From Brenneria bubanii (GTDB lineage: Bacteria; Pseudomonadota; Gammaproteobacteria; Enterobacterales; Enterobacteriaceae), in assembly GCA_022378355.1 (NCBI GenBank), contig JAKMAJ010000010.1, positions 105,719 through 169,718 of the forward strand: a stretch of DNA of 64,000 nucleotides. The letters are read 5' to 3'. Positions 1,554-52,956 of the stretch are shown here, one piece after another. The notes under the pieces were generated by a model. That model saw only the letters and a program-made list of their open reading frames with translations, had not been told where the DNA came from and did not search any database. The position numbers and the translations under genes were made by a program. The stretch's first letter is position 1. Each line of letters begins with the position of its first letter.

Positions 1554-4500
1554 ATGAACGGCAGTCAACTGCGCTGGCTCAGCCTGTTACCGCTATGCCT
1601 GGCTGCGGTTCCGATAGCGCAGAGCGCGGAGGCGGTTCCCCCCAAACAGTTTCTGATAGAACAGATACGTCTGGGAGAAGCCCGCTACAAAGACGATCTG
1701 GTGCGTCAGTCGCTTTATCGTCTGGAGCTGATCGATCCGAATAATCCGGAGATACTGGCGGCGCGGATACGCCTGGCGCTGCGTCAGGGCGATCAATCGC
1801 AAGCGCGTCAGCAGTTGGAAAGGCTGAAAGCGCTGGCGCCGAACTCGCCTTTTTATCGTCAGGCGGAAATGAACCTGGCGCTGACGCAACAAGACGTACG
1901 GCAAAAATTACAGCAGGCCCGTTTGCTCTCCACCGCCGGCCGTTACGCCGAAGCCAAAGCTCAGTACGACGCGCTGTTTCACGGCGAACCGCCGACGATT
2001 GAACTTGGCGTGGAATACTGGCGTCTGGTGGCGAGGTTGCCCAACCAGGAGCCGGTGGCCATTAAACAGCTGCAGGCGCTGGATCAGCGTTATCCCGGCA
2101 ATGTATCGCTACGCATCATGCTGGCGCGTCTGTTGTTTAGCCAGCATCTTAACGAACAGGCTTACGGGATATTGCAGCAGTTGGCCACGGATCCCTCCGG
2201 CGCCGGCTCCGCATCCTCATTATGGCTGGAAATCGTCGGAAGAATGGACGTCACGCCGCAAAGCGTCGACGCATTACAGCGCTATATGACCGTGTTTGGC
2301 GAAGCCAATCAGGGTGAGTCCGGGCGCAGAATGCTCGATAAACAGCTGGCGATGCTGGCCGATCCGTCATATCAAGCCCGACTCCGCGGCCTGGAGAAAA
2401 TCGACAGAGGCGATGGCGGCGCCGCCGTTATCGGCGAGCTAAATAAAGCCCTGGCCGCATCGCCAAACGATCCGGAACTTATCGGCGCCATTGGCGTCGC
2501 CTACCTGCGCGCCGGCGAGCGGGAGAAAGCGTTAACCCAGTTTCAGCTGGCGCTGAATGCCGATACCAATCACCTTAACTCCGACAAATGGGAAAGGCTG
2601 ATAAAGAGCACGCGTTACTGGCAACTGCTCAACGAAGGCGACAAAGCGTTAAAAAACAACCGCCCAATGGTTGCGCTGCTCAAATATAATCAGGCCCGGG
2701 CATTGGATGACACCGATGCTTTCGCCCTTATCGGCCTGGGCGATGTCGCCGTCGCCACCCAAAACGACGCGGCCGCCGAAACGGCCTATCAGCAGGCGCT
2801 GCGCCTCTCGCCCAACAACACCAGCGCGTTGCGCGGACTGGTGAACATCCATCTGCGCCAATCGCCGGAGAACGCGCTGGCCTATATCAACGGCCTGCCG
2901 CGCGCTCAGCAAAATATGCTGCGCACGACGCTCAACGGTTTGCGGCGCGACATTGTCAAACAGCAGGCGGACCGGCTTTTCGAACAGCAGCAGTGGATGC
3001 AGGCCGCCGACAAATATCGTCAGGCGCAGCAGCTCGACCCCGACGATATCTGGATGGACTATCGCTATGCCCTGACCTTGCGCCGTCTCGGGCAGGCCGA
3101 TCAAGCGGATAGCATGTTGCAACGCGCCGCCGCGCAGCCCCCCGCCAATGCGGAGAAAAACTATGCCTACGCGCTTTATCTCTCCTCGACCGATCGAGAT
3201 ACCCAGGCGTTGGCATACCTTGATACGTTGCCCACCGCGCAGTGGAACAGCAACATGCATGAGCTTTCACAGCGTCTGACGCTGCAACGGGCGCTGGCTC
3301 AGGCGCAAGCGATGCGTGATGCGGGGGATGAGCGCGGCGCGATAGCCTATCTGCGCCAACAGCCGTCGAATCCGCGCCTTGATCTTGAACTGGCGGACTG
3401 GGCGCTGGCGCGTGGCGAATACGATGAAGCGCTGGCGGCCTATCAACAGGTCAGCATAAAGGAACCGCAAAATCCCGATGCGCAGCTGGGCGAAGTCGAG
3501 GCGTTTATCGCGCAGGGAAACGAGGATGAAGCGCGCCAGCGCTTACAGCAGCCCGTCGCTCAAACCGACAACACGCTCAACAGCCGGCGCAGGATCGCCA
3601 ACGCCTGGCAGGCGGTCGGCAATACTGAACAGGCGGCGACGCTGTTTCAGCGGCTGAGAATCGACGCGGGCAAAGCCGCCCCCGGCCCGGATCAGGCGTT
3701 GGTTTACCGCGATACGGCCCGATTTGAACGTCAGCGGCTACAGCCTGATCAGGCGGCGCAAGATTACCGTCAGGCCATGGTGGCCAGCGGCATCACGCCG
3801 GTTTTGCCGCAGGATAACGACGCCTATACCCGACTGACGCGTAATCATCCCTCGGATGACTGGCTGAAACGCAGCATTCGCGCCGAAGCCGCCGATACCT
3901 ACCGCCAGCAGGATATTAACGTCACTCTCGACCATGATTATTGGCAATCCAGCGGTACCGGCGGCATTTCCAATCTGAAAGCGCACGACACCATGTTACA
4001 GGTGGATATGCCCCGGAACGACGGACGCGCATTTCTGCGCACCGATACCATTGAGATGAATGCCGGGTCGTTTTCAACCAATAACGCCGGCGCCTACAGC
4101 AATGTATTCGGCACCTGCTCAGGGCAGCCGAATGGATGCGTTAATGGCAAATCGCAGAAAGCCACCGGCACCAGCGTTGCCGCAGGCTGGAAAAACGACC
4201 GCTGGGCGGTGGACGTCGGCACCACGCCGATCGGTTTTGAAGTGGTCGATGTGGTCGGCGGCATTAGCTACAGCGGCGACTGGAAGAACATCGGCTGGAC
4301 CACTACCGCCTCACGCCGCCCGATATCCAGCTCATTACTGGCATTCGGCGGCGCCAAAGATCCGGGTACAGACACCACCTGGGGCGGCGTTCGAGCAAAC
4401 GGCGCCGCTCTGGCACTGAGCTACGACCAGGGGAAAGCACATGGGGTTTGGGGGGATTTCAGCGCTTATCAGATCAGCGGGAAAAATGTCGCCGATAACC

Positions 4501-6187: not shown

Positions 6188-8119
6188 ATGTTTAAAACTT
6201 TATTTGAGCCTAAGAAAATAAATCAGTGCGTTATTCCCAACCGATTGATTGTTACCGCCATGGTGGCCAACTATTGTCATGCCGACGGCACCGCCTCCGA
6301 TCGGTATATCGCCTATCACGAGGAGAAGGCGAAAGGCGGCTGGGGATTAATTATCACCGAAGACTATGCGGTCAACGAACATGCCATGGGATATCAATAT
6401 ATTGCCGGCTTATGGCACGACGGTCAGGTAGCGAGCCACAAAAAATTAACGGATACCGTGCATCGCTATGACAGCAAGATTTTCGCCCAAATCTATCATG
6501 CGGGCCGCCAGAGTTGCCGCGCCGTCAACGGCGGAATGCAGCCGGTCGCCCCTTCCGCCATTCCCTGTCCCTGGTTAAAAGAGATGCCGCGCGCACTGTC
6601 GGCGGCGGAGATTGAACAGTTGGTCAGGGATTTCGGCCAGTGCGCGCGGCGGGTCAGGCTGGCGGGGTTTGACGGCGTCGAAATTCACGCGGCTCACGGC
6701 TATCTGATCGCCGAATTTCTCTCCCCCTATGCCAATAAACGCGTCGATAAATACGGCGGCTGTCTGGAAAATCGGGTGCGGTTTTTAAAGGAAATCTATC
6801 AGGAGGTTCGACGGAACGTCGGCGCGGATTTTCCGGTGATCGTGCGCTTTTCCGCGGACGAGGGCTTCATCGGCGGTCGCGATATCGCCGAAGCGCGGGT
6901 GCTGGCGCAGCTATTTGCAGAGTGGGGACTGGATGCGCTGGACGTGTCCGTCGGCGCCTATGGCGATCACAATAAATACGGCACCGTGGCCCCCATGTAC
7001 GTCGGCCATGCCTGGACGACGCCGCTGGCGGAAGAGATAAAAAAACTGGTGAACATTCCGGTAATTACCGCAAACCGCATCAACGATCCACGGATGGCGG
7101 ATACCCTGCTGACGATGGGGAAAGCCGACTTTGTCGGTATGGGGCGGGGTTCGCTGGCCGACCCGCATTTACCCCGCAAGGCGCAAGCCGGCGAGCTGAC
7201 CTCGATTCGCTACTGCATTGGATGTATGCAGGGCTGTACCGGCAGTTTATATCTGGGCGAGCCGCTGAAATGTCTGGTCAATCCGTCGCTGGGAAGGGAA
7301 GGCGTACTGGACTACGGCCAAACCGCGACGCCCAAAACCCTTTATATCGCCGGCGGCGGACCGGGCGGCATGGAGGCGGCAAGGGCGGCGGCGATGCGCG
7401 GGCACCGCGTAACGCTGTTTGAGAAGCGCAGCCAGCCGGGCGGACAATTTCTTTCCGCGGCCTATCCGCCCGGTAAAGGCGAACTGGCGACCTATACCTC
7501 ATGGATGATTCAGGAGTTGGCAAAGCTGAACGTGGTCATCAAGTGCAATACCGAGCTGACAACAGAGATGATCCGCCAGGAAAAACCCGACGCGGTGATT
7601 GTATCGACCGGCGGCAGACCGGCTATTCCGCCGATTAAAGGCGCCAATCTGCCTCACGTTGTTTTAGCCGAGGAGGTGCTATTAGGCAACGTGACCACCG
7701 GAAATCATGTCGTCATCGCCGGCGGCGGCGAAGTGGGCGGAGAGACGGCGGCGCACCTTGCCATGCAGCAAAAGCACGTCACCATTATTGAAATGCGGGA
7801 GAGTCTCCTACAAGAGCTGGACGGCGTGAGTAAATTGCATGTCTTAAAGCTGCTCGACGAATTCAGCGTTAAGCAATACCTGAATACCAAGCTGGTCGAA
7901 ATCGCCGAACGGCATGTGGTGGTGGAAAATCAACAAGGACGCATGCATATCGCCGCGGATACCGTGGTGCTGGCGCTGGGCTATATTCCCGTCAATCAAC
8001 TGGCGAAACAGCTGGATGAATACGGTGAAAACCTGGCGGTAATTGGCGGGGCGGTGAAGACCAGCAATGCGCTGGTGGCTATCCGCGAAGGATTTGACGC
8101 CGGAATGGCGGTGGTTTGA
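6188..8119 (+). CDS. NADH:flavin oxidoreductase / 2,4-dienoyl-CoA reductase-like enzyme (old-yellow-enzyme TIM barrel plus C-terminal FAD/NAD(P)-binding domains)
   Basis: N-terminal OYE-family motifs (…GWGLIITE…HAGRQ…HAAHGYLIAEFLSP…) and a C-terminal GGGPGG Rossmann dinucleotide motif. GGAG Shine-Dalgarno 9 nt upstream of the ATG at 6188. Confidence 0.8.
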   Translation: MFKTLFEPKKINQCVIPNRLIVTAMVANYCHADGTASDRYIAYHEEKAKGGWGLIITEDYAVNEHAMGYQYIAGLWHDGQVASHKKLTDTVHRYDSKIFAQIYHAGRQSCRAVNGGMQPVAPSAIPCPWLKEMPRALSAAEIEQLVRDFGQCARRVRLAGFDGVEIHAAHGYLIAEFLSPYANKRVDKYGGCLENRVRFLKEIYQEVRRNVGADFPVIVRFSADEGFIGGRDIAEARVLAQLFAEWGLDALDVSVGAYGDHNKYGTVAPMYVGHAWTTPLAEEIKKLVNIPVITANRINDPRMADTLLTMGKADFVGMGRGSLADPHLPRKAQAGELTSIRYCIGCMQGCTGSLYLGEPLKCLVNPSLGREGVLDYGQTATPKTLYIAGGGPGGMEAARAAAMRGHRVTLFEKRSQPGGQFLSAAYPPGKGELATYTSWMIQELAKLNVVIKCNTELTTEMIRQEKPDAVIVSTGGRPAIPPIKGANLPHVVLAEEVLLGNVTTGNHVVIAGGGEVGGETAAHLAMQQKHVTIIEMRESLLQELDGVSKLHVLKLLDEFSVKQYLNTKLVEIAERHVVVENQQGRMHIAADTVVLALGYIPVNQLAKQLDEYGENLAVIGGAVKTSNALVAIREGFDAGMAVV

Positions 8120-26630: not shown

Positions 26631-28841
<2,211 letters not shown>

Positions 28842-28869
28842 CACATCAGGCTAGGACGCGCCTCCCCTC

Positions 28870-28900
28870 GCCCGGTGTGGTTTCACACCGGGCGTTTTTG
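28870..28900 (+). terminator. Rho-independent terminator of katG
   Basis: Hairpin GCCCGGTGTG-gtttc-ACACCGGGC followed by a GTTTTTG run, 28 nt after the katG stop. Confidence 0.7.
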
Positions 28901-28991
28901 TTACCCGCCGAAGCGCGCCGCTAGTTGGCCGCCAATCGACGATAGCCTACGCAAACCGCGCCCGTCACCGGCCCTACATTAGCCTCCCAAT

Positions 28992-30594: not shown

Positions 30595-31389
30595 TCAAAC
30601 GCCGGTCAGCACGGTCTCATACAGCAGCCGATCCAACGCGGCGTCGAGGCGTTCGTCCTTTGCCGGTGGTGAGATGGCTATCGCGGTTTCCAGCGACTGC
30701 GCGATAAACGCGTGGATATGCGGTTGCCGCGCCACCACATCGGCCTCTATCGCGCTGCATTTCATTTTCAGCAGCGCCCGAACCTCTGCCAGCAGGGCGG
30801 GATCCGTCACCATCGCGTTCAGCAACACCTCGAACTGCATAGGCGGCGCTCCCCTCCCTTCGGCAATCCACTGCATCGCCAGCAGCGAGCGCAGCACGTA
30901 AAAATACTTTTTCAGCCGCACGCGCTCATCCTGCAAATAGCTGCGAAAGTTTTTACGCGCGATGGAGAGGTAATGATGACTCGCCTTGAGCGCGGAAAAA
31001 CAGCCGGGGATCAACTGGCGCAGCCGGTCCGTCGCGATATCGTCCTGCCGGTAGACCACCGGTGAGTCCAGCCATTCGATAAGCGTGGGGTTGCCCCGGT
31101 TCAATAGCGCCAACGCTTTGCGCAATTCCCAGCCGCAGACGTCCAACGCCGCCGTCAGCGGACGTTCGATCACGTCAGGCTGCGGTTCAACCCGCAGATA
31201 CCACTGCGGCGGATGAACGTAGATGAATCGGACATCATAATCACTGTCCGGCGAGGCGAATCCCCAGCCGCGGCTGCCGGACTCGCAGGCGTACAGAATG
31301 CGGACATCGAACGCCTGTTCCACTTCGTCCAGCGCCGCGTTGATCTGCTGTTTCATTACTTCGCTGACGCCCTGAGATGCCTGTGTCAT
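30595..31389 (-). CDS. Pol-beta-superfamily nucleotidyltransferase with a C-terminal alpha-helical domain, function unknown; second gene of the putative RtcR-controlled sigma54 operon
   Basis: Minimal-NTase motif GS-x9-DxD (ESGSRGWGFASPDSDYDVRFIYV) and a third acidic residue in …ALDVCGWEL…, followed by about 150 aa of helical sequence. GGGAGGGAAAGGA Shine-Dalgarno. Lies 43 bp downstream of the SPFH gene on the same strand. Confidence 0.65.
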   Translation of the reverse strand: MTQASQGVSEVMKQQINAALDEVEQAFDVRILYACESGSRGWGFASPDSDYDVRFIYVHPPQWYLRVEPQPDVIERPLTAALDVCGWELRKALALLNRGNPTLIEWLDSPVVYRQDDIATDRLRQLIPGCFSALKASHHYLSIARKNFRSYLQDERVRLKKYFYVLRSLLAMQWIAEGRGAPPMQFEVLLNAMVTDPALLAEVRALLKMKCSAIEADVVARQPHIHAFIAQSLETAIAISPPAKDERLDAALDRLLYETVLTGV

Positions 31390-31432
31390 ATCCTTTCCCT
31401 CCCGTTCGGTGCGTCGCCGCTGCCTGCAGCAG

Positions 31433-32569
31433 TTACGCCCCCTTTAAATTCACTAATCCGTTCAACACCTGATCCAACCCGCCGAACACGGAAATTTTAT
31501 CGATGCGTTCCGCCACGCGCTCCAACGTTTCCAGCTCCTTCAAGCGCAGCGCGACCGGGTTGTTTTCCATCACTTTGGCGGTATTCAGCAGGGAACGCGT
31601 CGCCGACGTTTCTTCCCGACGTCGTATCACGTTGGCCTGCGCCGCCTTTTCCGCCTCCACCACCTGAGACAGGATGGTTTTCATATCGCCCGGCAGCACG
31701 ATATCCTTCACCCCCAGAGAAACCACGTCGATGCCGTAACCGGCTATTTTTTCACGAACCTGCGCGTTGACCCGTTCATCGATGAACTGCTTGTTTTCCA
31801 GCAGTTCATCCAGCGTGCGGGTTCCCACGGCTTCACGCAACGCGAACTGCAGCTCGCGGTACAACGAATCCACCGGTTTGGTTAACTGGCCGAAGGCCGT
31901 TAAAACGTCGTTATAGCGCCAGTTGGCCACCAGATTGAGCCGCAGGTTGACCTTATCGCGCGTCAAAATTTCCTGCCCGCTTACTTCCAGCGCCTGCTGA
32001 CGAGTGTCCACCATTTCCAGCTCTACGCTGTGGTTAAAACGCCAGTAGCCGCTGACGCCGGGCGGCAACAGCTCCCGCGCCGCGCCATCGACCTTCAAGA
32101 GGCCCAGATGCCATGCCGGCACCTGCGCCAGCAGGACGCCGGCATGTCCGATCACCTGTCGCTGACGCAGCTTCGGCTGCAGCAGTGCCGACACCAGCGC
32201 GTCCGGCACCCGGATGTCCTCGGTTTTCACCTGTTCGACGCGCTGATGTTCATCCTTACGCCAGTAAAGTCGACGCGTGGCGGGCGGCAGAATTTCCTGC
32301 AGCACATCATGATCGTAGCGAAGCCCGATCGTCTCTTCCGGCAATACCACATCCAGACAAAACTGCTTTACCCATTCCGGATGGTACTGGCGCAGGTAGT
32401 CGTCCAAAGGCGCCAGCACTTCAGAACCATCCAGAGACACGACTTCAATTTTTTGTCGATTAAACCAACGGGAAATACGGTGCCGACCCGCTTCCAATAC
32501 CTGCAGGTAGTCGCCGTCTTTGCTCACCAAACCCAGCTGACCTTTACGAATTGTTATGAACTTAAACAT
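31433..32569 (-). CDS. SPFH/band-7 (stomatin/slipin-like) domain protein with no TM segment, carrying a roughly 190-aa N-terminal domain of unknown function; first gene of the sigma54 operon divergent from rtcR
   Basis: The C-terminal half matches the stomatin SPFH core (…TRDKVNLRLNLVANWRY…GIDVVSLGVKDIVLPGDMKTILSQVVEAEKAAQANVIRRREETSATRSL…NPVALRLKELETLERVAERIDKISVF). Start placed at MFKFITIRKG (AGGAGA Shine-Dalgarno 9 nt upstream), not at the upstream in-frame Met at 32665. Confidence 0.75.
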   Translation of the reverse strand: MFKFITIRKGQLGLVSKDGDYLQVLEAGRHRISRWFNRQKIEVVSLDGSEVLAPLDDYLRQYHPEWVKQFCLDVVLPEETIGLRYDHDVLQEILPPATRRLYWRKDEHQRVEQVKTEDIRVPDALVSALLQPKLRQRQVIGHAGVLLAQVPAWHLGLLKVDGAARELLPPGVSGYWRFNHSVELEMVDTRQQALEVSGQEILTRDKVNLRLNLVANWRYNDVLTAFGQLTKPVDSLYRELQFALREAVGTRTLDELLENKQFIDERVNAQVREKIAGYGIDVVSLGVKDIVLPGDMKTILSQVVEAEKAAQANVIRRREETSATRSLLNTAKVMENNPVALRLKELETLERVAERIDKISVFGGLDQVLNGLVNLKGA

Positions 32570-32764
32570 TAATCTTTTTCTCCTGATGACCCCTCCGGCA
32601 CACGAGGAGACGAACGTCGGGGCGAAGCCGCAGGGGGAAAGCTCAGGGTTCCTGATGGAACGCATCAGCCTTCTGCCTGCCGCCCGGCGCGTCGGTCAGT
32701 CTCTCGTGAGGCAATCGTCAACTTCCCGGTTGCGGGAGGGTTATTTTTTCATTACCAATATCAA

Positions 32765-32791
32765 GGTGCGATGTTCGGGATTCGAACCCGA
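32765..32791 (-). other. tRNA 3'-fragment-like element (T-stem-loop plus acceptor 3' strand) within the 5' leader of the SPFH/NTase operon
   Basis: The minus strand reads TCGGG-TTCGAAT-CCCGA-ACATCGC-A-CCt. This is a perfect 5-bp T-stem with the canonical 7-nt TTCGAAT loop, a 7-nt acceptor 3' strand, a discriminator and CC. No matching 5' half (GCGATGT…) is found nearby, so it is not a complete tRNA gene. Confidence 0.5.
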
Positions 32792-32916
32792 ATTAACCGG
32801 TTATCAAGTGTTCGACGCCTGACGGAACATTCACAGGAAAGCGGCGACAGGCCGCTCCTGGAATGCCGGCGTGGTGCTGAATCACAGCAAAACCAACGCG
32901 TCGACGAGAGAGGTAA

Positions 32917-32932
32917 TGCGAAAGGCGTGCCA
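32917..32932 (-). promoter_or_regulatory. Sigma54 -24/-12 promoter, the putative RtcR target, driving the SPFH/NTase operon
   Basis: The minus strand reads TGGCACGccttTCGCA, one mismatch from TGGCACG-N4-TTGCA. It sits in the intergenic region shared with rtcR, about 335 nt upstream of the SPFH ATG. A candidate IHF-like site (tATCAgtgaaTTAt) and direct repeats lie just upstream. Confidence 0.6.
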
Positions 32933-33069: not shown

Positions 33070-34653
33070 ATGAAACGCAGAGTGGTGATTGGCGCGCTGG
33101 GCACCGTCCTGGATAAACGCGGCAAACGGGCCAACCGCTGGAATAAATGGCGGCCGACGGTCGCACTATGCCAACAGCCGGAGATGCCGGTGAGCCGGCT
33201 TGAATTACTGTACCAATCGCGCCACATCGGTCTGGCGGAACAGGTTCGCGCGGACATCGCCGCGCTGTCGCCCGCAACCGAAGTACGTCTGCATGCCGTC
33301 GATTTGTTGGATGCCTGGGATTTTGAGGAGGTCTACACCGCGTTTCTCGACTTCGCCACCCGCTACACGTTCGACACCGAGAACGAAGAATATCTGGTAC
33401 ACATCACCACCGGCACCCACGTCGCGCAGATCTGTTGGTTTCTGCTGACGGAGGCGCGCTACCTGCCGGCCTGCCTGCTGCAAACCAGTCCGTCCCCCCG
33501 GCATGAAGACGCCCCGACTCCAGCCGGCGTCTATTCGATTATCGACCTGGACCTCAGCCGCTACGCGACGCTGACGAGCCGCTTTCAACAGGAGCAGCAG
33601 GCGTCGGCCTCGTTTTTGAAAGCCGGCATTGCGACGCGCAACACGGCGTACAATGCCTTGATTGACCAAATCGAGCGCGTCGCGCTGCGCTCCGCCGCGC
33701 CGTTGTTGCTCACCGGGCCGACCGGCGCGGGAAAATCCTTTCTGGCGCGGCGGATCTACGAATTAAAAGCCGCTCGCCATCAGGTTTCAGGCCGCTTCGT
33801 CGCCGTCAACTGCGCGACGCTGCGAGGAGACAATGCGATGTCGACGCTGTTCGGGCACGCCCGGGGCGCGTTTACCGGCGCGCAGCAGGCGCGAACCGGA
33901 CTGCTGAGGGAAGCGGACGGCGGCATTCTGTTCCTGGATGAAGTCGGCGAACTGGGTCTGGATGAACAGGCTATGTTGCTGAAAGCGATTGAAGAAAAAA
34001 CCTTTTTTCCCTTCGGCTCAGATAAGGAAGTCAGCAGCGATTTTCAACTGATCGCCGGTACGCATCGCGATATGCCGCGCTGGGTCGCGGCCGGCCATTT
34101 CCGTGACGATCTCTACGCGCGCATCAATATGTGGACCTTTCCCCTCCCCGGCTTGGCGGCGCGGCGTGAAGATATCGAGCCCAATATCGACTTTGAGCTA
34201 CAGCGTTTTGCCGAGACGCAGCTGCTGCAAGTCCGCTTTGACCGCGAAGCGCGCCAGCGATTCCTGGGATTCGCCTGCTCGCCGCAGGCGCCGTGGCACG
34301 GCAATTTCAGAGAATTAAGCGCCAGCGTCGTCAGAATGGCGACATTGGCCGATAATGGCCGCATTACCCTCGCGCTGGTCGACGAAGAGATTTGGCGCCT
34401 GCAGCGGCAGTGGGCGCCCGGCGACGCCGAGCAAGCGCCTCTACCGGAGCGCGTCGGCGACTGCGATCTGTTCGACCGCCTCCAGTTGGAAAGCGTGCTG
34501 AACCTGTGCCGTCAGGCCGGCAGCCTGTCGGAAGCGGGCCGCCGGCTATTCGCCGTCTCACGCCTGCAGAAAAAAAACCCGAACGACGCCGACCGGCTGC
34601 GCAAGTATCTGGCGCGGTTCGATCTCAGATGGGATGACGTCAAACACCATTAA
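33070..34653 (+). CDS. rtcR: Sigma54-dependent transcriptional activator RtcR (N-terminal CARF domain, AAA+ sigma54-interaction domain, C-terminal HTH)
   Basis: Colinear with E. coli RtcR over its full length, including MK…GALGTVLDKRGKRANRWNKWRPTVALCQQ…, the Walker A LLTGPTGAGKSFLARRI, the GAFTGA-type loop (GHARGAFTGAQQ) and the end DADRLRKYLARFDLRWDDVK. Confidence 0.9.
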   Translation: MKRRVVIGALGTVLDKRGKRANRWNKWRPTVALCQQPEMPVSRLELLYQSRHIGLAEQVRADIAALSPATEVRLHAVDLLDAWDFEEVYTAFLDFATRYTFDTENEEYLVHITTGTHVAQICWFLLTEARYLPACLLQTSPSPRHEDAPTPAGVYSIIDLDLSRYATLTSRFQQEQQASASFLKAGIATRNTAYNALIDQIERVALRSAAPLLLTGPTGAGKSFLARRIYELKAARHQVSGRFVAVNCATLRGDNAMSTLFGHARGAFTGAQQARTGLLREADGGILFLDEVGELGLDEQAMLLKAIEEKTFFPFGSDKEVSSDFQLIAGTHRDMPRWVAAGHFRDDLYARINMWTFPLPGLAARREDIEPNIDFELQRFAETQLLQVRFDREARQRFLGFACSPQAPWHGNFRELSASVVRMATLADNGRITLALVDEEIWRLQRQWAPGDAEQAPLPERVGDCDLFDRLQLESVLNLCRQAGSLSEAGRRLFAVSRLQKKNPNDADRLRKYLARFDLRWDDVKHH

Positions 34654-34672: not shown

Positions 34673-35587
34673 ATGGAACTGATTTTTTTAGGCACCAGCG
34701 CGGGCATCCCGACGAAAGAACGCAACGTGACCAGCCTGGCGCTGAACCTGCATAACCCGCATCCCGCCTTTTGGCTGTTCGACTGCGGTGAAGGTACGCA
34801 GCATCAGATGCTGCACACGCGTTTAAGCGCCAGCAAGATCGAGAAAATCTTCATCACGCACCTCCATGGCGATCATCTGTTTGGCCTGCCCGGCCTGCTG
34901 TGCTCCCGCTCGATGGCCGGTTGTCAGGCGCCGCTGACGCTCTACGGTCCTGCCGGGCTGAAAACGTTTATCGATAACGCGCTGAGCCTGAGCGGCTCTT
35001 ATCTCACCTACCCCCTGGAGGTGATCGAAGTCACCTCCGGACCGGTTTGCGAAGACGAGCGCCGTGTGGTGACGGCCTATCCGATGTCGCACACGCTGAC
35101 CTGCGTCGGCTATCGCATCGAAGAGCGGCCTAAACCCGGCGCGCTGGACGTCGCGCGGCTAACGAACGAGAGCATTCGCCCCGGCCCCTGGTTTCAGCAA
35201 TTAAAACGCGGCGAATCCGTCACGCTGGAGGATGGGCGTACCCTAAACGGCGCCGACTACCTCGGACCGTCCACGCCGGGCCGATCGCTCGCGATATTCG
35301 GCGATACCCGCCCGTCGGAAGCGGGACGTATGCTGGCCGCCGGGGTGGATGTAATGGTGCACGAAGCGACGATGGAGGCCAATATGGCCGAGAGCGCCAA
35401 CGCGCGCGGCCATTCCACGACGGAACAGGCGGCGACGCTGGCTCGGGAAGCGGGGGCGGGACGTTTGATTATCACCCACGTCAGCGCGCGATATGGTCAG
35501 GAAGACAGCAAGCGGCTGCTGGCGGAGTGCCGGGCCATTTTCCCGGCCACGAACATGGCTACCGATCTGGCCACCTTCAGGGTGTAG
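34673..35587 (+). CDS. rbn: Ribonuclease BN / RNase Z (metallo-beta-lactamase tRNA 3'-processing endonuclease)
   Basis: Near-colinear with E. coli RNase BN (ElaC): [14 protein letters not shown]…NVT…[12 protein letters not shown]…[19 protein letters not shown]…[15 protein letters not shown]…LIITHVS. Lies 19 bp after the rtcR stop with its own GGAG Shine-Dalgarno. Confidence 0.9.

Positions 35588-52879: not shown

Positions 52880-52956
<77 letters not shown>

Follow-up and report, generated by a model that had tools for sequence, protein, structure and literature searches.

A probable reduced tRNA-mimic module in the conserved structured leader of a band-7 operon of Brenneria bubanii

Our analysis of a 64-kb stretch of the Brenneria bubanii genome (64,000 nucleotides; hereafter the window) suggests that a 27-nucleotide element in an operon leader is, very probably, a reduced form of the tRNA-mimic modules that precede band-7 genes in many bacteria: a T-arm followed by what used to be the 3' strand of an acceptor stem. 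We demonstrate the sequence, conservation, covariation, positional homology and genomic association of this module, and we tentatively propose that it works as a protein handle by mimicking the tRNA elbow or a minihelix. Identity and mechanism taken together, this is the explanation that we favour, with somewhat better than even confidence.

The minus strand of the window from 32791 to 32765 reads TCGGG-TTCGAAT-CCCGA-ACATCGC-A-CC: a T-arm at 32791..32775, with a 5-bp stem, the canonical T-loop U54 U55 C56 R57 A58 and the closing pair G53-C61, is followed by ACATCGC (32774..32768), A (32767) and CC (32766..32765). The 27-mer thus exists as described in the first-pass annotation, which called it a mimic of the 3' half of a tRNA. 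Its T-arm is more than chance; the pattern G-TTCRANY-C with a 5-bp stem finds two perfect T-arms on both strands of the window, the element and a tRNA-Pro at 52907 that has a different T-arm, against a first-order Markov expectation of 0.19. The accompanying statement that no 5' half lies nearby also holds: ARAGORN on the whole window reports the tRNA-Pro only and no tRNA at the leader; Rfam, searched with the 7-kb neighbourhood and then with the leader alone at E<=10, returns no tRNA (RF00005), Y RNA or other credible family; and ACATCGC has no transcribed 7-mer partner, at six or more of seven positions, in the 200 nt to either side. At E<=10 the leader gives chance plastid and miRNA matches only, which pick up the T-loop, and the sole 6/7 complement of ACATCGC, at -157, is upstream of the promoter. 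The 5' acceptor strand, D arm and anticodon arm of a genuine tRNA gene or pseudogene are missing at the window element, where the vestigial 5' strand can still form only 4 bp (UGAU/AUCG).

Much is known about RtcR-controlled RNA-repair operons from E. coli and Salmonella. In the window, RtcR (CARF plus σ54 AAA+ activator; Pfam PF06956 6e-82, PF00158 7e-49) is encoded at 33070..34653 on the plus strand, divergent from the leader, and a σ54 promoter, TGGCACGCCTTTCGCA (−24 GG, −12 GC), lies at 32917..32932 on the minus strand; its TGGCAC-N5-T(C/G)GC element can be aligned across every enteric leader and most of the non-enteric ones. The first gene starts with the ATG at 32569, preceded by AGGAG at 32584..32580. 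Given the positions of promoter and ATG, the leader is ~337 nt long; the element, ~115 nt into the leader and 206 nt upstream of the start codon, does lie between promoter and first gene, as annotated. The gene content is another matter: the operon is neither rtcBA nor rsr-rtcBA, and it encodes a Band-7/SPFH (slipin-family) protein of 378 aa (31433..32569, minus strand; Pfam PF01145, 5e-29) and then the nucleotidyltransferase RlaP (30595..31389, minus strand; PF10127, 2e-92), with no RtcB found by tblastn across the whole 64-kb window. The Band-7 protein is 93-94% identical to Lonsdalea proteins and has an extra N-terminal domain of ~145 aa, the AF2 model of which gives weak structural matches only, all to SPFH proteins. 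The RlaP family is reported in a preprint to add 1-2 NMP to RNA 3'-OH ends (PMC12776372). From this arrangement we infer that the leader is transcribed from the RtcR/σ54 promoter along with band-7 and rlaP. Orthologous loci, including one with the same synteny (L086), carry band-7, rtcB and rlaP in that order; rtcB is missing from the Lonsdalea, Klebsiella, Citrobacter and Hafnia versions, and an Affinibrenneria locus (L081) has also lost rtcR and rlaP, keeping the leader and band-7 only.

We compared 91 loci, which span Enterobacterales, Pseudomonas, Burkholderiales, Rhodocyclales and Neisseriales. A strict motif finds the T-arm in a constant position before the band-7 gene at 79 of 80 genome loci; with stem scoring, the T-arm (UCGGG-UUCGAAU-CCCGA at 32775..32791 of the minus strand in the window) is kept in 86 of the 91, and its stem pairs 49:65, 50:64 and 51:63 covary. 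The first-pass annotation had made a functional role depend on presence of the element in orthologous leaders of relatives, and a canonical T-arm is what those leaders contain. The T-loop invariants and G53-C61 are intact in every enteric leader, while the Band-7 proteins have diverged to ~60% identity. Presence of the tRNA-like modules goes with the band-7 gene rather than with rtcR: the modules also occur at loci whose fetched upstream flank revealed no rtcR (L028, L032, L040, L058, L062 and L066 among them).

Leaders outside the enterics have two T-arms, 70-78 nt apart, which belong to two modules spaced 3-6 nt apart, as are genes in tRNA operons. Module 1 is usually a “mini-tRNA” of ~45-55 nt, made of a covarying 7-bp acceptor stem, a GG-containing linker and the T-arm and devoid of an anticodon arm; module 2 is a full cloverleaf with arbitrary anticodon loops. 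ARAGORN predicts tRNA-like genes in 45 of the 91 leaders, with ~30 different “anticodons” and many loops of 6 or 8 nt, and the Rfam tRNA model matches three non-enteric modules at 48-58 bits. In 29 non-enteric sequences, compensatory changes occur in 7/7 pairs of the mini-tRNA acceptor; 93% of the acceptor cells are paired, versus 35-55% with a slid partner; and the stem is followed by N-CCA in 8/29 and by N-CC in 12/29.

Homology of the window element to these modules is supported by colinear leaders, by the top match of one model, by the transfer of another and by a locus that holds both modules. Enteric and non-enteric leaders are colinear in our alignments. Model R2, trained on non-enteric mini-tRNAs only, has its best match in the whole window (filters off) at 32764..32821 of the minus strand (19.0 bits, E=0.043), anchored by the T-arm; T-arm and 3' strand align, and the 5' strand is unpaired. 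On group-A enteric leaders the same model aligns full-length at 20-30 bits. In Hafnia its alignment pairs the 3' strand with a GAUGU that lies within the conserved GUUCYG segment; we judged this pairing spurious, as the covarying P3 helix of the leader's 5' domain occupies the segment. Model R3, trained on enteric sequences only, locates this 5' domain immediately before the tRNA-like modules of 13 non-enteric leaders (E<0.01). Locus L089 contains both the mini module and the full cloverleaf, and the single enteric T-arm therefore corresponds to module 1; in the window only module 1 survives, the second module having been lost.

The surviving module has changed on both sides of its T-arm. Upstream, the linker UUGAUAA-CCGGUUAAU (32792..32807, minus strand) lines up with UGCGAAA-AGUCGGUUAAC in enteric mini-tRNAs of group A and comprises a decayed 5' acceptor strand and a conserved GG. 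In the Lonsdalea clade and group A this GG keeps its place 5-9 nt before the T-stem, and non-enteric linkers show GG(U)G; the motif is a putative D-loop mimic and could sit in a UAA-CCGG-UUA mini-hairpin. A GG motif also occurs 3' of the hairpin described next in some enteric lineages. Downstream, an acceptor-like hairpin (ACAUCG, loop CACCU, UGAUAU; 32758..32774, minus strand) with one C.A mismatch and one G.U pair stacks directly on the T-stem. Such a hairpin begins 0-2 nt past the T-stem in 14/14 leaders (Lonsdalea clade, group B and L005), with compensatory changes among them: AUAUCG/CGAUAU, AUAUCA/UGAUAU, CAUCA/UGAUG, UUCACU/AGUGAA and UCACC/GGUGA. These hairpins were located and counted by a script with a shuffle control, because the MAFFT alignment of the hairpin region (A4) was out of register. 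Upstream pairing of the 3' strand in the Lonsdalea clade, which would be the normal tRNA topology, was rejected, because L081 and L084, which have a G->A change at position 71 of the 3' strand, show a compensating change in the downstream partner and none in the upstream one. The annotated label of “acceptor 3' strand plus discriminator-CC” is therefore right as to ancestry and probably wrong for the present-day structure, because in this clade these bases form the 5' strand and loop of the hairpin. MFE structures of L001 and L081 contain both the T-arm and the downstream hairpin, that of the window contains the T-arm only, and locally the window element does not exceed shuffled sequences in stability (z −0.25). 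Within its clade the window copy is the weakest, with a C.A mismatch, a G.U pair, a hairpin absent from the MFE structure and a marginal R2 match.

The whole leader (32570..32906, minus strand, ~337 nt) is a conserved structured RNA without an Rfam family. Folded at full length, as the first-pass annotation had proposed, it gives an MFE z-score of −4.1, and it probably folds in vivo as predicted. RNAalifold on 23 enteric leaders yields 49 pairs, 37 of them with compensatory changes, and in three comparisons the leader has a higher identity than third codon positions in the gene next to it (0.853 vs 0.763, 0.690 vs 0.607 and 0.633 vs 0.427). The 5' domain (32818..32897, minus strand) is a three-way junction of covarying pairs: P1 (32897-32893/32822-32818), a hairpin (32888-32869) and P3 (32868-32863/32830-32823) with an inner hairpin. 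On the other side of the module, a hairpin with an 11-nt loop (GGGAAGUUGAC, consensus ..GCAGUYAGC; 32712..32732, minus strand; RNAalifold columns 221-241) shows two-sided changes in 4-9 sequences per pair with 3-8 broken or gapped, weaker support than for the other leader helices. It is followed by a long 3' helix domain (GACC..GCCGGGCGGCAGGCAGAA ... UUCCCCCUGCGGCUUCGCCCC..GUC; 32606..32704, minus strand; columns 250-283 with 325-357), most pairs of which covary and the motifs of which are also visible in non-enteric leaders. Leader length is ~340 nt in Enterobacterales and ~500 nt elsewhere; blastn in distant mode finds no counterpart of the window leader among complete E. coli genomes or PLSDB plasmids.

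We propose that the ancestral first module was a mini-tRNA, with a 7-bp acceptor stem, a short GG-containing substitute for the D-loop, a T-arm and, often, a discriminator and CCA, and that its leader would have been expressed with band-7, rtcB (lost in the window) and rlaP from the RtcR/σ54 promoter. Three changes may have followed in the Lonsdalea lineage: loss of the second, cloverleaf module; decay of the 5' acceptor strand; and re-pairing of the 3' strand with a downstream segment, which would leave the T-arm coaxially stacked on a closed hairpin. The resulting module may present the shape of a tRNA “top half” or “elbow”—a T-loop with adjacent GG plus an acceptor-like helix—and serve as a recognition handle for tRNA-binding proteins. 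Candidate binders would be the operon's own products Band-7 and RlaP, RtcB at other loci, and/or enzymes that process or modify tRNA; most likely, the module is neither a decoder nor a ligand of RtcR. A broader and speculative extension is that the larger uncatalogued RNA (5' three-way junction, one or two tRNA mimics and long 3' helix) might be the RNA partner of Band-7 (SPFH) in a ribonucleoprotein like that of Ro and Y RNA, in which case leader and band-7, as in L081, could be the minimal functional pair, even without RtcB, and the enteric re-wiring into T-arm plus closed helix, with a 3' shift of the GG motif in some lineages, would independently reproduce the architecture of YrlA.

Two rival readings, a scar and a relic, have to be weighed. 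A tRNA 3' portion without a 5' half is also the hallmark of an att-site remnant, and the first-pass annotation had raised the possibility of an integration scar, i.e. a duplicated tRNA 3' end left as attL or attR; such a scar would call for a host tRNA with a 3' end identical to GGTTCGAATCCCGAACATCGCACCA. Relaxed pattern searches indeed show genuine tRNA-Gly and tRNA-Leu genes elsewhere that end in ...TCGCACC, the matches being mostly such genes and att-like tRNA-Leu fragments, with only 3 band-7 leaders and no further close relatives. This reading is nevertheless extremely improbable: orthologous leaders of at least four orders, Enterobacterales to Burkholderiales, have the element in the same position, and its stems covary rather than being identical; an exact search with its 24-nt core (T-loop to CACC, three degenerate positions) finds nothing among 2.9 M viral contigs or 241 M metagenome records; the att-like tRNA-Leu 3' fragments keep ~50 nt identical to the real tRNA, an identity tract of a length that the element lacks; and the T-arm of the window tRNA-Pro differs. 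It is also improbable that the element is a non-functional relic, a T-arm slowly eroding from a once-functional mini-tRNA in a decaying Lonsdalea operon, given that T-loop invariants and G53-C61 are untouched in all enteric leaders despite ~60% Band-7 identity, that the hairpin has accumulated compensatory substitutions within the clade, that the leader is more conserved than synonymous-like sites in the three comparisons above, and that both the T-arm and the 6-bp hairpin are still perfect in L081, a locus reduced to leader and band-7. What speaks for decay is the state of the window copy itself, with an imperfect hairpin, a weak R2 score and a local fold that is not unusually stable, together with the loss of rtcB, which the same-synteny L086 keeps, and the further loss of rtcR and rlaP in L081; with rtcB and the second module both gone from the operon, the element could itself be in the process of being lost.

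Two other functions have been considered beside that of a protein handle. The tRNA-like fold might act in cis as a processing or stability signal by drawing RNase P, RNase Z/BN or RNase E to the leader for cleavage, as happens in co-transcripts of tRNA and mRNA; this would set the 5' end and half-life of the band-7/rlaP mRNA without yielding a functional small RNA. An acceptor stem, a discriminator and CCA are what RNase P and 3' trimming enzymes recognise; the ancestral module has all of these (the stem with 7 bp), the two tandem modules lie 3-6 nt apart, the element is in a 5' leader, and an RNase Z/BN gene (rbn) adjoins rtcR in the window, at 34673..35587, and in L081, L083, L086 and L090. 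In addition, YrlA of M. smegmatis is cleaved by RNase P and receives CCA (PMC4201824). The window form, on the other hand, has no 5' acceptor strand and holds its ACC in a hairpin loop, and would therefore be a poor canonical substrate of RNase P or RNase Z; nor would processing alone explain two conserved modules, the GG linker and the large covarying 5' and 3' domains. We consider such a role unlikely as an explanation of the element, and compatible with a protein handle rather than exclusive of it. The remaining suggestion of the first-pass annotation, a cis element related to the ligand sensed by RtcR, finds no support in our data: that the element is a source or mimic of this ligand, which would bind the CARF domain and close a positive feedback loop, is highly improbable. 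Feedback is topologically possible, since the leader is under RtcR/σ54 control, and the CARF domain of RtcR binds tRNA fragments, according to Hughes et al. 2020 as reported in PMC9650030; yet the modules follow band-7 and persist at the loci without a detected rtcR in the upstream sequence fetched, and the anticodon loops of the cloverleaves are arbitrary and often non-canonical, so that anticodon nucleases would hardly be expected to act on them. Both an anticodon arm and a 5' half are missing from the window copy; tRNA fragments failed to activate E. coli RtcR in vitro (PMC9650030); and Salmonella YrlA is left uncleaved by the damage-induced nuclease (PMC7790460).

A reduced tRNA mimic in a band-7 leader is of use beyond this locus, because the locus family amounts to a natural deletion series, from full cloverleaf to mini-tRNA with CCA to T-arm plus closed hairpin. 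Every form has a T-arm with a stacked helix and a nearby GG, which points to the tRNA elbow or top half as the functional core; the series, the rtcB-less enterics and the locus reduced to leader and band-7 together argue for an association with Band-7, not with RtcB or RtcR. The binding partner of the mimic is thereby a directly testable question in tractable enterics, and the family flags a large covarying leader RNA that Rfam does not catalogue.

Among known tRNA-like systems, tRNA minihelices and the tRNA-like domain of tmRNA resemble the element in stacking an acceptor helix on a T-arm and in having the canonical T-loop invariants, and the ancestral forms share a discriminator and CCA as well; the helix in the window, however, has no free 3' end. 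YrlA is more similar in setting: it too is an RtcR/σ54-controlled, non-coding tRNA mimic of an RNA-repair operon, with a tRNA-like domain, modified by TruB and DusA (PMC4201824), in which a canonical T-arm is followed by a closed acceptor-like stem-loop; enteric group-B leaders with a GG motif (ACUGGUUGU) 3' of the hairpin follow its order T, AS, D. In contrast to YrlA operons, the operon in the window encodes only Band-7 and RlaP and no rsr (Ro60) gene; the element lies in a 5' leader rather than between rsr and rtcB; its GG is 5' of the T-arm, with no D-arm 3' of the hairpin; and for the Ro-binding strand GNCGAAN(0-1)G, GNCGAANG is absent from the minus strand within 32570..32906 (N=1 form), and the single GNCGAA of the leader, read for the N=0 form, is GUCGAA followed by C. 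The resemblance to YrlA, which is partial in the window, appears to be a convergent re-wiring of a mini-tRNA. Thus, of the three readings in the first-pass annotation, that of a Y-RNA-like tRNA mimic came closest, in that the element is a positional homologue of modules in almost all band-7 leaders and joins a T-arm to a closed hairpin, though the element is not itself a YrlA.

[quoted passage not shown] 2018 (bioRxiv 10.1101/312249), who state that it was never validated. According to the latter account, b7a-tRNA adjoins Band-7 and RtcB, and YrlA occasionally adjoins Band-7. Unlike that class, said to “strongly resemble an authentic tRNA”, the window copy is recognised neither by ARAGORN nor by the Rfam tRNA model, lacks a D-arm, an anticodon arm, a 5' acceptor strand and an RtcB neighbour, and has an acceptor-like helix closed by a loop; its non-enteric homologues, however, do resemble an authentic cloverleaf tRNA. 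The loci described here may also differ from the class, as secondarily described, in that two unlike modules, a mini-tRNA and a cloverleaf, are usual and lie inside a larger structured leader. In common with b7a-tRNA, the window element is a non-coding tRNA-like element by a Band-7 gene in an RNA-repair neighbourhood, and it is the positional homologue of the modules in the band-7/rtcB leaders of Pseudomonas, Burkholderia and others. It is very probably a new and reduced form of the predicted b7a-tRNA type.

The element on the minus strand at 32791..32765 reads TCGGG-TTCGAAT-CCCGA-ACATCGC-A-CC, and direct reading of the sequence bears out the first-pass annotation, which described a T-arm followed by an acceptor-like 3' strand and a discriminator-CC. 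The T-arm is canonical, with the loop U54 U55 C56 G57 A58 A59 U60 closed by a G53-C61 pair, and the seven bases plus ACC that follow it resemble an acceptor 3' strand and discriminator. Perfect T-arms of this form occur twice on the two strands of the window (the element, and tRNA-Pro at 52907), against 0.19 expected from a first-order Markov model. The claim that no 5' half lies nearby also holds: ARAGORN called tRNA-Pro alone in the window and not the element; an Rfam scan of the leader at E<=10 matched no family; and no transcribed 7-mer within 200 nt pairs with ACATCGC at six or more of seven positions. It is a genuine, conserved element and not a chance occurrence.

The transcribed leader (~337 nt) extends from a sigma54 promoter (TGGCACGCCTTTCGCA, 32932..32917, minus strand), divergent from rtcR (33070..34653, plus strand; Pfam RtcR and Sigma54_activat), to the ATG at 32569, just before which lies AGGAG. 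Below it lies not rtcBA but an operon for a Band-7/SPFH protein of 378 aa (PF01145) and an RlaP nucleotidyltransferase (PF10127); gor comes next, and no RtcB coding sequence was found anywhere in the 64-kb window. At 93-94% identity to Lonsdalea proteins, the Band-7 protein assigns the window to a Lonsdalea-like enterobacterium. Band-7 and rlaP (30595..32569, minus strand) constitute the whole RtcR-controlled operon, with rtcA absent from the window as well. Directly after rtcR lies a gene for ribonuclease Z/RNase BN, the tRNA 3'-end endonuclease (34673..35587, plus strand; NCBIfam NF000800, 507.9 bits vs. a cutoff of 398). An RNase Z gene also adjoins rtcR or the leader in four loci from other genomes (L081, L083 of Xenorhabdus, L086 and L090); the adjacency may reflect mere synteny, or it may tie RNase Z functionally to the CCA-less tRNA mimic. 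Antisense to the leader, the plus strand at 32722..32739 holds a terminator-like hairpin and then a T-run, which the transcribed strand shows as an A-run ahead of the hairpin. A weak Spot 42-like Rfam match at 28787..28901 (plus strand; 23.8 bits vs. a gathering score of 80, E 0.32) spans the katG 3' end (stop codon at 28841); most likely it reflects no more than the terminator hairpin of that gene.

An alignment search for Band-7 homologues at one genome per species gave 80 loci, and ten more were added by exact-protein look-ups. A strict motif search found a T-loop and its complementary stem upstream of band-7 in 79/80 loci, and stem scoring places a T-arm there in 86/91, with covariation at pairs 49:65, 50:64 and 51:63; the element is thus present in orthologous leaders, and it was absence from them that the first-pass annotation had named as refuting a function. 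The canonical gene order is rtcR <- / sigma54 leader / band-7 -> rtcB -> (x) -> rlaP. Several enterics lack rtcB (the window, L001, Klebsiella, Citrobacter sp., Hafnia and Mangrovibacter); L086 has the synteny of the window (RNase Z, rtcR, leader, band-7, rtcB, rlaP, gor) with rtcB kept; and L081 (Affinibrenneria) has lost rtcR and rlaP too, retaining band-7 and a leader with a perfect T-arm and hairpin. Because the tRNA-like modules persist where the fetched upstream flank shows no rtcR, in operons without rtcB, and in L081 with leader and band-7 only, they associate with band-7 and not with rtcR or rtcB. Four of the upstream flanks with no rtcR detected hold genuine tRNA genes: six in L032 (2145..2705; Asp, Phe, Arg, Pro, His and Glu, alongside a gene for an HNH endonuclease), five in L066 (153..2031), two in L040 (2494..2756) and one in L028 (1630..1704). 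L032 also carries an FtsH-like AAA+/M41 protease gene after rtcB, and the Xenorhabdus operon of L083 (band-7, rtcB, rlaP) ends with a KptA-type RNA 2'-phosphotransferase gene (6718..7263, PF01885).

Leaders outside the enterics contain two T-arms, 70-78 nt apart. The second module is a 70-73-nt cloverleaf with acceptor stem, UAGCUCA...GAGC D-arm, anticodon arm and T-arm; in many loci ARAGORN reports it as a tRNA, its "anticodons" number about 30, and its anticodon loops often have 6 or 8 nt. As for the first module, some Pseudomonas have a full cloverleaf, and Burkholderia, Rhodocyclales and other Betaproteobacteria have a 43-57-nt mini-tRNA built of a 7-bp acceptor stem, a 12-24-nt linker, the T-arm and the 3' acceptor strand; the linker has a conserved GG(U)G, often within the loop of a 3-bp hairpin. 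Three leader modules, of either type, score 48-58 bits with the Rfam tRNA model. In a structural realignment of 29 non-enteric mini-tRNAs, compensatory changes occur at all seven acceptor pairs, 93% of acceptor cells are paired (35-55% with the partner slid), and the stem is followed by N-CCA in eight copies and by N-CC in 12.

Enteric leaders are mutually alignable end to end, and the lone enteric T-arm corresponds to the first module, since in L089 a mini module (GCGAAA ... T-arm ... UUUCGC-G-CC) is accompanied by a cloverleaf downstream of it. A first group of enterics, group A (L002, L005, L007, L012, L085, L086, L090 and L083), keeps the mini-tRNA as UGCGAAG, a 12-14-nt linker, the T-arm and CUUCGCA-CC. 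In the window, ...UCGCACCU aligns to the 3' strand and ACC of this group, and UUGAUAA to the 5' strand UGCGAAA, with only UGAU/AUCG left of the pairing. A covariance model trained on non-enteric mini-tRNAs matched group A over its full length (20-30 bits) and group B (Klebsiella, Citrobacter, Phytobacter) only locally at the T-arm; its best match in the whole window with filters off is 32764..32821 on the minus strand (19.0 bits, E=0.043), with T-arm and 3' strand aligned and the 5' strand flagged as unpaired.

The same 3' strand now most likely pairs downstream. A hairpin begins 0-2 nt past the T-stem in 14/14 leaders of the Lonsdalea clade, group B and L005: ACAUCG/UGAUAU in the window (loop CACCU, one C.A and one G.U), AAUAUCG/CGAUAUU in L001, AUAUCA/UGAUAU in L081 and L084, CAUCA/UGAUG in L082, UUCGCC/GGUGAA in L005, and UUUCA/UGAAA, UUCAUU/AAUGAA, UUCACU/AGUGAA and UCACC/GGUGA in group B. 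Its stem has at least 5 bp in 13/14 leaders, against 21% of shuffled trials. L081 and L084 carry G->A in the 3' strand, and it is the downstream partner (C/U to U), not the upstream remnant, that compensates for this change. The ViennaRNA minimum-free-energy structure contains the T-arm and stacked hairpin for L001 and L081, and the T-arm alone for the window. The "acceptor 3' strand plus A-CC" is therefore correctly named as to ancestry, but today its bases most likely supply the 5' side and the loop of an acceptor-like helix that is closed. The Lonsdalea clade and group A alike keep a GG located 5-9 nt upstream of the T-stem (CCGGUUAA in the window; AAGGUUAA, AUGGCUAU, UUGGUUUA and CUGGUUAA in relatives), whereas in group B the motif (ACUGGUUGU) lies 3' of the hairpin. 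L005 (Superficieibacter, 3774..3850) has GG motifs on either side of the T-arm, and its strand AUUCGCC has a partner on each side, GCGAA 5' and GGUGAA 3'; this leader may be an evolutionary intermediate or may adopt two alternative structures.

The element sits in a large covarying leader RNA, uncatalogued in Rfam, no family of which matched it. RNAalifold predicted 49 pairs from 23 enteric leaders, 37 with compensatory changes; they define a three-way junction in the 5' part, the T-arm, a hairpin whose 11-nt loop is conserved and, in the 3' part, a long helix. When a covariance model of the 5' domain was trained on enteric sequences alone, it matched 13 non-enteric leaders (E<0.01) directly upstream of the tRNA-like modules. 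Identity is higher in the leader than at third-codon positions of the adjacent band-7 gene (L001, 0.853 vs. 0.763; L081, 0.690 vs. 0.607; L084, 0.633 vs. 0.427), and the window leader folds more stably than 100/100 shuffles (z -4.1). A search of complete E. coli genomes and PLSDB plasmids found no similar DNA.

These observations exclude the suggestion that the element is a tRNA 3' end left by an integrative element: its position is conserved in orthologous leaders, its stems covary, and its 24-nt core has no exact match in viral and metagenome collections. True att-like tRNA-Leu fragments, retrieved by a relaxed-pattern search, keep ~50 nt identical to the tRNA. Four such metagenome contigs (L100, L101, L137 and L138) carry ~50-nt 3' fragments of tRNA-Leu(TAG), from anticodon stem to acceptor end with no 5' half, and are typical att-type duplications, in contrast to the window element. 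That the window copy is the weakest of its clade would suit a pure relic, but the intact T-loop invariants, the compensatory changes and the conserved leader argue against one. A role as ligand or feedback element of RtcR is unlikely (the first-pass annotation had suggested a cis element related to the ligand that RtcR senses), given that the modules persist at loci whose fetched upstream flank showed no rtcR; moreover, E. coli RtcR was not activated by tRNA fragments in vitro (PMC9650030), and the damage-induced nuclease of Salmonella does not cleave the bacterial Y RNA YrlA (PMC7790460).

Every variant keeps a canonical T-arm with a stacked helix and a GG close by, which would together make up the top half, or elbow, of a tRNA. 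Given that the anticodon arm is dispensable, and unconstrained where present, we infer that the RNA is not a decoder. RNase P, 3' trimming and CCA-dependent enzymes use a 7-bp acceptor stem, discriminator and CCA, exactly the determinants that the ancestral mini-tRNA would carry. Because these are present and the spacing of the two modules resembles that of genes in a tRNA operon, the mini-tRNA lineages are likely to excise discrete tRNA-like RNAs. The closed helix of the window form makes canonical end-processing unlikely, and the module probably acts inside the leader or a larger fragment. [quoted passage not shown] Candidate binders would be the co-encoded Band-7, RlaP and/or TruB/TrmA-type enzymes; RlaP is reported in a preprint (PMC12776372) to add 1-2 nucleotides at damaged RNA 3' ends and to aid in restoring repaired tRNA.

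Wang et al. [quoted passage not shown] The tandem tRNA-like modules of band-7 leaders match the prediction as given there. The window element shares this lineage but does not look like a real tRNA, the defining trait of that class. The module order of YrlA, T-arm, closed stem and GG element (PMC4201824), is the same in group B leaders. The Y-RNA-like mimic suggested in the first-pass annotation is upheld in part, as a tRNA-mimic module with partial likeness to YrlA, and corrected as to lineage: the window element is a reduced, re-wired variant of the b7a-tRNA lineage, and its resemblance to YrlA is apparently convergent.
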